Shown one piece after another: positions 1 through 3,880 of a stretch of 64,000 nt of DNA. The stretch covers positions 256,001 through 320,000 of the forward strand of contig CBDCYI010000004.1 of assembly GCA_965224085.1 (NCBI GenBank), read 5' to 3'. Numbering within the stretch: the first letter of the stretch is position 1; every line of letters begins with the position of its first letter. Made by a program: the position numbers and the translations under genes. This stretch comes from Candidatus Marinacidobacterales bacterium. Lineage in GTDB: Bacteria > Acidobacteriota > Vicinamibacteria > Marinacidobacterales > SMYC01. Below the pieces are notes generated by a model. The model did no database searches. It saw only the letters and a program-made list of their open reading frames with translations, and was not told where the DNA came from.

Positions 1-37
1 ACTTCAACCTTCCTGATCTGGACGCTGCCCAGCACAC
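1..37 (-). mobile_element. 5' end of a second, nested group II intron inserted in the left intron copy; continues beyond the window start
   Basis: Identity to the right intron copy stops at ...GATTCATAGT (pos 38). The minus strand then reads GTGTGCTGGGCAGCGTCCAGATCAGGAAGGTTGAAGT, a GUGYG 5' splice-site consensus resembling but distinct from the host intron start GTGCGCTGGGC...GGTGGAAGT. Only 37 nt are visible. Confidence 0.7.
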
Positions 38-433
38 ACTATGAATCGGTCCGACTTCCGGCCTCAGCTCAGCACCGCGCTTCGGTTTTCCCTTGCGCGA
101 CGCCCCCATCGGTGACCATTCCGATGGACCCGGCCGGACCTCCTGGGTCCCGAAAGGAACTCTTCGTACGTGATGTGGTCCACGACCCCGGCGGAGCGTA
201 ACCATCTCGCGATAGCGATGGCCCACATGCTGCCTTCATTGACGGGAATCAACTCGGCCTTCCGCGATATTCAGCATTTCGAGGCTACATTCACACACCC
301 TGCACGACCCCTGTCTACGCTTCGGACCCCGCGTTGCCACGACGCCCGCAAGACTCGGTCCCGACCTGTCCGCTACGACTTTTGGTCGGATTGGACTTCC
401 ACCCATAGGCTCCTTTCAGTTAGCCCAGCGCAC
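38..433 (-). mobile_element. Group II intron copy (5' 396 nt, domain I to start of domain III) inserted in the IS256 TIR downstream of the transposase
   Basis: Reverse complement of 1880-2275. Starts GTGCG at 433. Mirror ORFs 64..252(-) and 2061..2249(+) are identical. Confidence 0.93.
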
Positions 434-470
434 TCCCGTCGGATGTTGAATTTGGTCGGGTAGCGGCGGC
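434..470. repeat. IS256 terminal inverted repeat downstream of the transposase, inner part
   Basis: Reverse complement GCCGCCGCTACCCGACCAAATTCAACATCCGACGGGA matches 1846-1879 except for a 3-nt indel and one substitution. Confidence 0.88.
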
Positions 471-1879: not shown

Positions 1880-3772
1880 GTGCGCTGGGCTAACTGAAAG
1901 GAGCCTATGGGTGGAAGTCCAATCCGACCAAAAGTCGTAGCGGACAGGTCGGGACCGAGTCTTGCGGGCGTCGTGGCAACGCGGGGTCCGAAGCGTAGAC
2001 AGGGGTCGTGCAGGGTGTGTGAATGTAGCCTCGAAATGCTGAATATCGCGGAAGGCCGAGTTGATTCCCGTCAATGAAGGCAGCATGTGGGCCATCGCTA
2101 TCGCGAGATGGTTACGCTCCGCCGGGGTCGTGGACCACATCACGTACGAAGAGTTCCTTTCGGGACCCAGGAGGTCCGGCCGGGTCCATCGGAATGGTCA
2201 CCGATGGGGGCGTCGCGCAAGGGAAAACCGAAGCGCGGTGCTGAGCTGAGGCCGGAAGTCGGACCGATTCATAGTACTGAGGAAGCTATCGAAGGCAACG
2301 AGATGGTGGAGGGAAGGGATCGGCCTGGAGGGAACCCACGGGAGAGGGCTAAGGTCCGGACACAGCGCCGGGTCGCCTTACCGCCAAATCTCACGCGGGT
2401 GAACGAAGCAGCGAAGCGAGATAGAAAGGCTCGGTTCACTGCGTTGCTGCATCACGTGGATCACGAAGCGCTCTATCGAGCGTTTCGTCGGTTGAAGCGC
2501 AGCGCAAGCGCTGGTGTCGACGGAGAGACTGTCGCCGATTACGAGAAGAACTTCGTGAGCAACATCAAGGATCTTTGCTCGCGGGTACACGCCGGTCGCT
2601 ACCGACCACTACCGGTGCGGCGCGTGTACATTCCTAAGTCGGATGGCGGAAAGCGCCCTCTTGGCATCCCCGCACTGGAAGACAAGATTGTCCAAGGAGC
2701 GGTAGCCGAGGTTTTGAGCGCCGTCTACGAAGTCGATTTCATCGGGTTCTCGTACGGGTTTCGGCCCGGACGGAGCCCGCACCAAGCGTTGCACGCGCTC
2801 CACACCGCGCTCATGACGCAACGCGTGAACTGGGTTCTCGACGCGGACATCCGCAAGTTCTTCGACTCGGTGGACCACGAGTGGTTGATGCGGATGCTTT
2901 CGCACCGGGTCGCCGACAAACGCATCCTTCGACTCATCCGTCAGTGGTTGCGAGCCGGCGTACTGGAGAAAGGAGAGTGGAGCGAGACAACTGAAGGGAC
3001 ACCGCAAGGGGCAGGTGTGAGCCCGCTCTTGGCTAACGTCTTTCTGCACTACGTTCTAGATCTGTGGGTTCATCGATGGCGCCGGCTCGAAGCACAAGGC
3101 CGTATTTCCATCGTGCGATACGCTGACGACTTCGTCATGGGCTTCCAGCATCGGACCGATGCCAGCAGGATGATGAGAGCGCTCAAGGAGCGACTAGCCC
3201 GATTCGGGCTTGCGCTCCACGAGAACAAGACCCGTTTGCTCGAGTTCGGGAGATTACCTTCCTTGTCACGCGAGCAACGGGGCCTTCGGCGGTGTGCGAC
3301 GTTCGCTTTCCTGGGTTTCACTCATTATTGTGGGAGAACCCGCGATGGCCGTTTCGTCGTGAAGCGCAAAACGCAGAGCCAGCGGCTACGAGCCAAACTC
3401 AAGTCGCTACGGCTTCGCGCGAAGCAACGTATGCATGCTCCAGTCGCCGTCCAGCATCGCTGGCTTTGCCAGGTGCTGCGCGGTCACTACGCGTACTACG
3501 GACTTCCCAGCAACATCCGCTCTCTCCAATCCTTTTCTGAGGAGGTGACACGGTTGTGGTTTCGAAGCCTTCGTCGGCGGAGTCAGCGCCGAATGACCTG
3601 GCCTCGTTTTCACTTGTTGTTGGAGCGCTTTCCCCTACCAGTCCCTCACCTCACTCCGTCCCGACTACCTTGCCTTGTCTGATTTCGGGTATACCTTCAG
3701 GAGGAGCCGAGTGCGGGAAAGCCGCACGCTCGGATCTGTGAGGGCGAAAGCCGAATGGCTGAGCTACTCGAC
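1880..3772 (+). mobile_element. Complete group II intron (endonuclease-less IEP, resembles bacterial class E)
   Basis: 5' GTGCG at 1880. Domain V GAGCCGAGTGCGGGAAAGCCGCACGCTCGGATC at about 3704-3736. Domain VI ends CTACTCGAC at 3772 (AY end). Internal RT ORF. Confidence 0.93.
2303..3682 (+). CDS. ltrA: Group II intron reverse transcriptase/maturase (start uncertain)
   Basis: ASAGVDG, YIPKSDGGKRPLGIP, SYGFRPGRS, GTPQG, RYADD, FLGF and a domain X (LRGHYAYY). No C-terminal HNH domain. Confidence 0.95.
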   Translation: MVEGRDRPGGNPRERAKVRTQRRVALPPNLTRVNEAAKRDRKARFTALLHHVDHEALYRAFRRLKRSASAGVDGETVADYEKNFVSNIKDLCSRVHAGRYRPLPVRRVYIPKSDGGKRPLGIPALEDKIVQGAVAEVLSAVYEVDFIGFSYGFRPGRSPHQALHALHTALMTQRVNWVLDADIRKFFDSVDHEWLMRMLSHRVADKRILRLIRQWLRAGVLEKGEWSETTEGTPQGAGVSPLLANVFLHYVLDLWVHRWRRLEAQGRISIVRYADDFVMGFQHRTDASRMMRALKERLARFGLALHENKTRLLEFGRLPSLSREQRGLRRCATFAFLGFTHYCGRTRDGRFVVKRKTQSQRLRAKLKSLRLRAKQRMHAPVAVQHRWLCQVLRGHYAYYGLPSNIRSLQSFSEEVTRLWFRSLRRRSQRRMTWPRFHLLLERFPLPVPHLTPSRLPCLV

Positions 3773-3778
3773 CATCCC

Positions 3779-3880
3779 CCCCGGCAGGGCTTCGCTTCTG
3801 TCACGACCCTCGAACACGACTTGGCCGTTCACGAGGACGAGCTCGACCCCGCGAGCATATTGATGAGGCTGGCGGAATGT
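3779..3880 (-). pseudogene. C-terminal remnant of a D-aminoacylase-like amidohydrolase abutting the IS256 end
   Basis: Minus frame reads TFRQPHQYARGVELVLVNGQVVFEGRDRSEALPG. No upstream gene body. Confidence 0.5.

Follow-up and report, generated by a model that had tools for sequence, protein, structure and literature searches.

Bacterial twintrons are already known, and group II introns are also known to home into other introns or IS elements. Twintrons in bacteria have been described as rare, and the known examples occupy regions of the host intron that tolerate an insertion (domain IV, ORF). In Thermosynechococcus elongatus, the inner copies of the TeI3/TeI4 twintrons are identical, which was taken as a sign of recent independent insertions, and the consequences for the cell were described as negligible (Mohr et al., 2010, PMC2882425). 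The inner intron of that system has no ORF, uses the protein of the outer intron and is located in domain IV, between two start codons (ATGs) of the outer ORF (PMC2882425). The nested arrays of Methanosarcina acetivorans, as portrayed in a review, involve repeated site-specific homing into further group II introns that are not surrounded by coding exons, and are presented there as a perpetual homing site (PMC4424553). The twintron of Trichodesmium erythraeum is located in a protein-coding gene, with the inner intron near the theta-theta' region of the host intron, and its sequential, inner-first splicing has been shown experimentally (Pfreundt and Hess, 2015, PMC4649490). Furthermore, organellar twintrons have been reported from Euglena chloroplasts (PMC4424553) and from lycophyte mitochondria, in the latter with insertion sites in domains IV and I (PMC7049729). 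According to the same review, the inner intron of a twintron often has to leave first (PMC4424553).

Here we describe a locus at which an IS256-family element carries a group II intron, termed A, in both of its terminal repeats, and at which the left copy of A carries a second group II intron, termed B, in its domain III. All three levels of the nest that an earlier note on this DNA had proposed (IS, intron A, intron B) were found at the locus, and we assign a probability of about 0.9 to the overall reading, in which B is also a member of a domain III-homing lineage. As in T. elongatus, in the terms in which that system has been set out, the inner copies are identical and the consequences for the host cell would be negligible; unlike its counterpart there, B encodes its own RT, is located in the internal loop of domain III and has relatives at the same site in unrelated bacteria. 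With M. acetivorans, as the review portrays it, the locus shares the repeated site-specific homing of group II introns into group II introns. In that archaeon, Dai and Zimmerly reportedly described in 2003 that introns home into ORFs of related introns, whereas B is directed at a ribozyme domain, in a nest whose outermost layer is formed by an IS terminal repeat. Like the Trichodesmium case, A/B is a bacterial group II twintron, and the inner-first splicing of the former is the model expected for the latter; unlike the single locus presented in that study, B constitutes a family of copies and a lineage with a fixed site. Organellar twintrons resemble A/B in being introns within introns, the inner one often being removed before the outer one folds; their inner introns, unlike B, are mostly degenerate and immobile, and the accounts of them given in the two sources report no lineage dedicated to one ribozyme motif (PMC4424553, PMC7049729). 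What sets the present case apart is an autonomous inner intron aimed at a conserved loop of the ribozyme core, a target that is kept across phyla and host-intron classes. Our literature searches yielded no report of a lineage homing into domain III, though an earlier description may exist.

The window, that is, the whole stretch of 64,000 nt that was analysed, corresponds to G000:C4:256001-320000. The left part of the nest crosses its border and is given in positions of the stretch L001 (C4:246001-262000); subtracting 10000 from an L001 position gives the window position. The features of the locus within the window are as follows:

1-37, minus strand: first 37 nt of intron B (B nt 1 is window 37), placed by the GTGTG start, the BLAST gap and the 7 identical copies
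38-45, minus strand: IBS1 for B, UUCAUAGU, which pairs with B nt 324-331
38-433, minus strand: left copy of intron A, nt 1-396, from domain I through domain II and J2/3 to the 5' half of domain III; RF02005, 140.9 bits, on window 176-399
434-446, minus strand: terminal inverted repeat at the left IS end, inner part, which is the 5' exon of A (IBS1 GACGGGA, IBS2 ACAUCC)
434-1879, no strand assigned: IS256-family body between the two insertion points of A; four full-length copies in the genome
485-1780, minus strand: IS256-family transposase gene, 431 codons; NF033543, 225.2 bits (cut-off 150), and PF00872, 143.6 bits
1880-3772, plus strand: right copy of intron A, uninterrupted, 1893 nt; RF02005 on 1914-2137 and RF00029 on 3702-3772, bounds from the empty IS ends
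2264-2323, plus strand: domain III of right A, basal stem 2264-2270 with 2317-2323
2399-3682, plus strand: RT/maturase gene of A; TIGR04416, 365 bits (cut-off 300)
3702-3772, plus strand: domains V and VI of right A; RF00029, 53.2 bits
3773-3779, plus strand: outer 7-bp tip of the right IS repeat, CATCCCC, which is the 3' exon of A; contiguous with the repeat at empty ends
3780-3787, plus strand: target-site duplication of the IS, 8 bp, CCCGGCAG; the matching copy lies beyond the window border, at L001:6493-6500

The earlier note had claimed that the left copy of A departs from the right copy after CATAGT and passes into a new GUGYG start, and on this point the letters and the alignment agree. 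On the minus strand, CATAGT at window 38-43 is followed by GTGTG at window 37-33; in the right copy, on the plus strand, CATAGT runs directly into ACTGAGG (CATAGTACTGAGG, window 2270-2282). Aligning the right copy to the left locus with BLAST gives a first block of 437 aligned positions (98.9%; 2 mismatches, 1 gap), which ends exactly at CATAGT, and a second block of 1505/1505 identical positions, which restarts 2033 nt further on at ACTGAGG. Two blocks on either side of 2033 nt indicate a clean insertion with no target duplication, and they exclude drift or chance. Once B is taken out, the outer intron is continuous and complete by comparison with the uninterrupted right copy, the left A resuming at L001:8004 and ending at L001:6508. 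The proposed twintron, with a second group II intron in domain III of the left copy, is thus borne out by a complete intron B after which A goes on without a single difference. Since repeated identical elements can mislead assemblers, an assembly or recombination artefact joining two unrelated introns has to be considered. Such an error is, however, hardly credible, given that A resumes to the base after B, that the same A/B junction occurs at six loci of the genome with differing unique flanks on four contigs, that the same type of junction appears in the assemblies of other organisms, and that 93-96% of sampled words of the stretch are present in public runs of several studies.

Intron B is 2033 nt long and extends upstream of the window to G000:C4:254005 (L001:8005). 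It starts with GTGTG at B nt 1-5, and its 3' end reads ...CCCGAC. The match to domain V/VI (RF00029; L001 8087-8005, minus strand), which at 41.3 bits is barely over the cut-off of 40, stops exactly where A resumes and places an adenosine, the candidate bulged branch point of domain VI, at -7 from the 3' end of B in the alignment; it is one of three RF00029 domain V/VI matches at the locus, the other two being located in the two copies of A. No match to B was obtained with the Rfam D1-D4 families. Between the GTGTG start and domain V/VI, B contains an RT/maturase ORF of 458 codons, intron-encoded in domain IV, which matches TIGR04416 (393 bits, cut-off 300), RVT_1 (146.6 bits) and GIIM (57.5 bits) and in which YADD is present; domain profile searches detected no endonuclease domain in this protein. 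The identity between the RTs of B and A is 34% over a local alignment of 311 residues, which makes B an intron distinct from A rather than a second copy of it. These are the elements that had been predicted for the DNA preceding the window, namely a different RT and a domain V/VI ending in AY (here ...CCGAC), followed on the minus strand by the continuation of A, which reads ACTGAGGAAGCTATCG after the end of B. An upstream sequence devoid of intron domains, or an outer intron that never resumes, had been named as evidence against the nest; domains V/VI of B are present and A does resume.

The position of B within A is given by covariation among 11 introns of the RF02005 class, namely A and 10 introns found in other genomes within the phylum. 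The locus L008 belongs to an unpublished genome and was kept out of this alignment, and the unpublished genome G049 was counted only in the RF02005-class and phylum junction tallies. For the 11 introns, RNAalifold yields a 7-bp stem, the 5' strand of which lies directly before AUAGUA and the 3' strand after GGAGGGAAG. Changes on both sides were found in 12 of the 14 pairs of the domain, and its paired cells amount to 86.1% as compared to 62.2% in shuffles, with 0/500 shuffles as high; when the partners are slid by 1-3 columns, 32-47% of the cells are paired. The hairpin is preceded by domain I, by a domain II that is large and branched, and by a GGA linker, and it comes before the ORF-enclosing stem (hand pairing), which identifies it as domain III. 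The insertion point of B, marked here by a slash, is AUAGU/A in the 5' strand of the internal loop of this domain, a loop that is almost without variation among the 11 introns of A's class. The right copy of A contains the vacant target between window 2275 and 2276, at A nt 396/397. Of the earlier assignment of the AGTCGGA site to a J2/3-domain III region, domain III stands, and J2/3 has to be given up in favor of the 5' strand of the internal loop, where covariation places the site.

For domain IV of A, nt 445-452 pair with nt 1815-1822, by hand pairing only; a first hand model, with domain IV at nt 398-403, was discarded, as covariation puts that stretch inside domain III. In the RT of A, the Pfam search at the default threshold detected RVT_1 alone, and hence no endonuclease domain. 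As the start of this gene we guess the GTG at 2399: the frame is open from an ATG at 2303, but 2303-2323 lies within domain III, which is why the GTG was chosen. Two further, more divergent introns of the RF02005 class are located elsewhere in the genome (G000:C11:1238965-1239221, 77.2 bits; G000:C5:971188-971443, 66.6 bits).

Target recognition by B can be read from its exon-binding sequence. The EBS1 resembling ACUAUG that had been anticipated for B is found as ACTATG at B nt 324-329. In full, EBS1 ACUAUGGA (B nt 324-331) forms 6 Watson-Crick and 2 G-U pairs with UUCAUAGU, and this IBS1 covers the final 3 nt of the basal stem of A's domain III plus the first 5 nt of the internal loop. A consistent EBS2/IBS2 pairing was not found among the lineage members compared. 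The candidate GGUCGG at B nt 291-296 gives 4 Watson-Crick and 2 G-U pairs, and it finds no support in the comparison, as its loop is invariant while the host sequence at -12 to -7 varies; AAUCG at B nt 262-266, which is nearly invariant while the host sequence varies, likewise finds none. Recognition of the conserved AGUCGGA by the protein of B is possible.

IS256-family elements possess terminal inverted repeats and produce target duplications of 8-9 bp. In the element described here the repeats measure ~40 bp, both ending ...CGGGACATCCCC. A second complete composite (G000:C11:1214110-1223407) carries the A+B twintron in both of its IS ends and is flanked by an 8-bp duplication of its own, CTCACGGA. 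Two intron-free IS ends in the genome read ...CCGGGA/CATCCCC, which fixes the boundaries of A and shows that 7 bp separate it from the tip of the terminal inverted repeat; all 12 A 3' ends of the genome are followed by CATCCCC, and beyond these 7 nt the flanks differ. On the other side, EBS1 of A (nt 187-193, UCCCGUC) pairs with G(A/G)CGGGA of the IS repeat and EBS2 (nt 134-139, GGGUGU) pairs with its ACAUCC. The genome contains 14 IS-end motifs, 11 of them with A, one with a 4-nt remnant of A and two empty. Compared with the full-length IS copy in the window, the three others show 99.2-99.3% identity, and the copies of A and B are 99.9-100% identical. The IS copies, being the more diverged, are older than the spread of the introns. 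From these sequence comparisons, the IS copies would have been in place first, would then have been entered by A, and A in turn by B. With its repeat split 7 bp from the tip, the IS is probably immobilised.

At G000:C4:1360219-1360377, a decayed nest consists of an IS end with only GTGC of A, followed by unrelated sequence; in a second one, at G000:C11:484183-487611, A, a fragment of the IS and a fragment of A form a rearranged block. An uninterrupted copy of A is located in the stretch L004 (G000:C11:190001-199000) at L004 3429-5324, minus strand, ~40 nt past the 5S rRNA gene. The site of this copy has only 17 nt (TTCAACATCCGGCGGGA) and CATCCCC in common with the IS end, and it represents either an IS end, solo or partial, or an ectopic target. 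In the 23S rRNA gene, two Rfam group I intron matches (RF00028) are found at L004 774-1021 and 1106-1374, with 55.1 and 70.7 bits.

The copies of B within the genome already indicate that its homing does not depend on A. B is present in 7 copies, all 100% identical, 6 of which lie in A at one site; of the 11 domain III sites of A in the genome, 6 are occupied by B and 5 are empty. The seventh copy (C9:853583-855615) is located inside a third, degenerate intron and not in A. This third intron is recognizable by an RF02003 match of 120 bits upstream of B, and by a truncated RT frame and a domain V/VI match of 29 bits, below the cut-off, downstream of it. The junction there is GGUAGU/A, reading GGGUCGGUAGU/AGCG..., within a hairpin of like design whose stem, GGGUC/GGCCC, was drawn by hand. 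B therefore homes independently, to the equivalent domain III position of another intron class.

The same site is used by relatives of B in other organisms. With the RT of B as query, 11 loci with 60-80% protein identity were found in named genomes, comprising a Planctomycetota MAG, two Singulisphaera strains (4 loci), a Myxococcales MAG, two gammaproteobacterial MAGs, Caballeronia, Paraburkholderia and an Acetobacteraceae MAG. All visible 5' junctions (9/9) come after RTAGT (ATAGT in 8, GTAGT in 1), with the AGUCRG motif preceding, and at all visible 3' junctions (9/9) the next base is A. Host-intron RNA or a second, host RT flanks 8 of the 11 loci, the signs being RF02005 (3) or RF01998 (1) upstream, and domain V/VI (5) or a host RT (6) downstream; no host-intron RNA or second RT was seen at L035, L043 and L045, with L035 and L043 having no downstream host domain V or RT.

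A metagenome scan with the first 15 nt of B, which is independent of the upstream sequence, matched 119 stretches, of which 80 were listed. Among these 80 matches, 11 are B-like by BLAST. Directly upstream, all 11 have RTAGT (10) or ATACT (1), and the GTCRG motif is located at the right distance in 10 of them; by comparison, 0/69 of the chance matches among the 80 listed end in TAGT. In the ATACT case (L101), the EBS1 loop is CAGUAUGG in place of CACUAUGG, a compensating change, and CACUAUGG is the loop of 16 of the 18 lineage members, with a covarying stem. Across 401 sampled genomes of the phylum, the strict junction pattern is truly present in this genome only and in none of the 400 others, the 2 other matches being chance, a number that the reversed control pattern likewise gave. 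The arrangement is not common.

The presence of its relatives at the same domain III site of host introns places B in a lineage with other group II introns as its homing targets. By the sequence record, the conserved domain III loop of other group II introns appears to be the normal homing site of this lineage, which would make B the parasite of a parasite; the relatives examined are all close, at 60-80%. A broader proposal, to which we give somewhat less than even odds, is that of a widespread, autonomous, RT-encoding lineage of obligate hyperparasites (Planctomycetota, several classes of Proteobacteria, Myxococcota) for which the domain III loop would be the natural, and perhaps the only, site. 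This loop would then act as a universal landing pad, permitting the switching of host classes and the gating of host activity by the splicing of B itself. Self-immunity of B by a -6 mismatch in its own domain III was considered and rejected, as at least 2 of the 18 members (L036, L106) carry a perfect CAUAGUA there. With a perfect target of their own in domain III, B-in-B nests should be possible; none was seen among the lineage members compared.

The distribution of copies also bears on whether the twintron moves as a unit. On this account, A+B would be transcribed and spliced at the ends of A, and the composite would retrohome into new IS ends, making a separate invasion of each copy of A by B unnecessary. 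The six A+B copies are indeed identical throughout; B lies in a loop, its ends would be brought together by its own fold, the RT gene of A is uninterrupted downstream of it, and both routes were deemed possible for the T. elongatus twintrons in the pertinent part of that study (PMC2882425). We nevertheless consider spread as a unit unlikely. B occurs alone, at 100% identity, in a different, degenerate intron, and its relatives occur in several Rfam host classes, so that B clearly homes independently; moreover, a 2-kb insert in the nearly invariant loop likely disables A, and five copies of A have an empty site.

Under the favored reading, a nest of three levels with B as a domain III-homing intron, the locus departs from twintrons in tolerant regions of the host intron: B targets a conserved, structured ribozyme core, and so does every relative examined, in unrelated hosts. 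If true, group II introns themselves would constitute a conserved and horizontally portable homing site, and the locus would offer a natural system in which the activity of one ribozyme depends on the excision of another. The reading would also account for the growth of intron-rich 'junkyards' in IS ends at no cost to the cell, and it would imply that annotation pipelines discarding multi-intron loci miss such nests. The target is short and well defined (EBS1 against UUCAUAGU), which makes the system amenable to a plasmid mobility assay.

The assembly of the nest can be pictured as a series of steps. An IS256-family element would have landed at the locus, making the 8-bp duplication. Intron A, having no endonuclease domain, would have recognised the inner IS repeat via EBS1/EBS2 and retrohomed into both repeats, 7 bp from the tips; the two copies of A point outward because the IS repeats are inverted. 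Subsequently B, with its own RT/maturase and equally no endonuclease domain, would have retrohomed into the DNA of the left A. It would reverse-splice into the DNA strand with UUCAUAGU/A, guided mainly by EBS1 ACUAUGGA, and insert at AUAGU/A. For introns without an endonuclease domain, the use of replication-fork primers for retrohoming has been described (review PMC4424553). In the RNA, B presumably leaves first, which would reunite the two parts of domain III and make A a working ribozyme again. The position of B in the conserved, covarying domain III suggests this inner-first order, and by analogy with known twintrons A would splice only after the removal of B.

Another possibility is a 'zombie' twintron, in which B is no longer spliced and the six copies of A bearing it are inactivated relics. 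Unspliced inner introns have been described in plant mitochondria (PMC7049729), and the RNA contigs discussed below show no direct sign of the excision of B. Set against this are seven copies of B at 100% identity, with an intact 458-codon RT with YADD, intact domains V/VI and a perfect EBS1/IBS1 pairing at the A sites; such identical and intact copies point to a recently active element rather than a decayed one, and we regard the loss of splicing as improbable.

RNA-library contigs from four sponge metatranscriptome runs cover A and B at low depth (L001:6400-10500), and none of the contigs listed for these runs extends across the A/B junction. A B-less joint, L001 8004 to 10038, is present in the contigs of 2 of the 4 runs; uninterrupted A DNA or unspliced RNA gives the identical sequence, and with five uninterrupted copies of A in the genome this joint counts neither for nor against splicing. 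At L001 9631-9794 (B nt ~244-407), RNA contigs of three sponge runs reach a depth of 20-68 with 3-4 variant letters, the rest of A/B being covered at 1-5. This pile-up probably stems from other organisms with related introns, or else from an RNA fragment that is stable.
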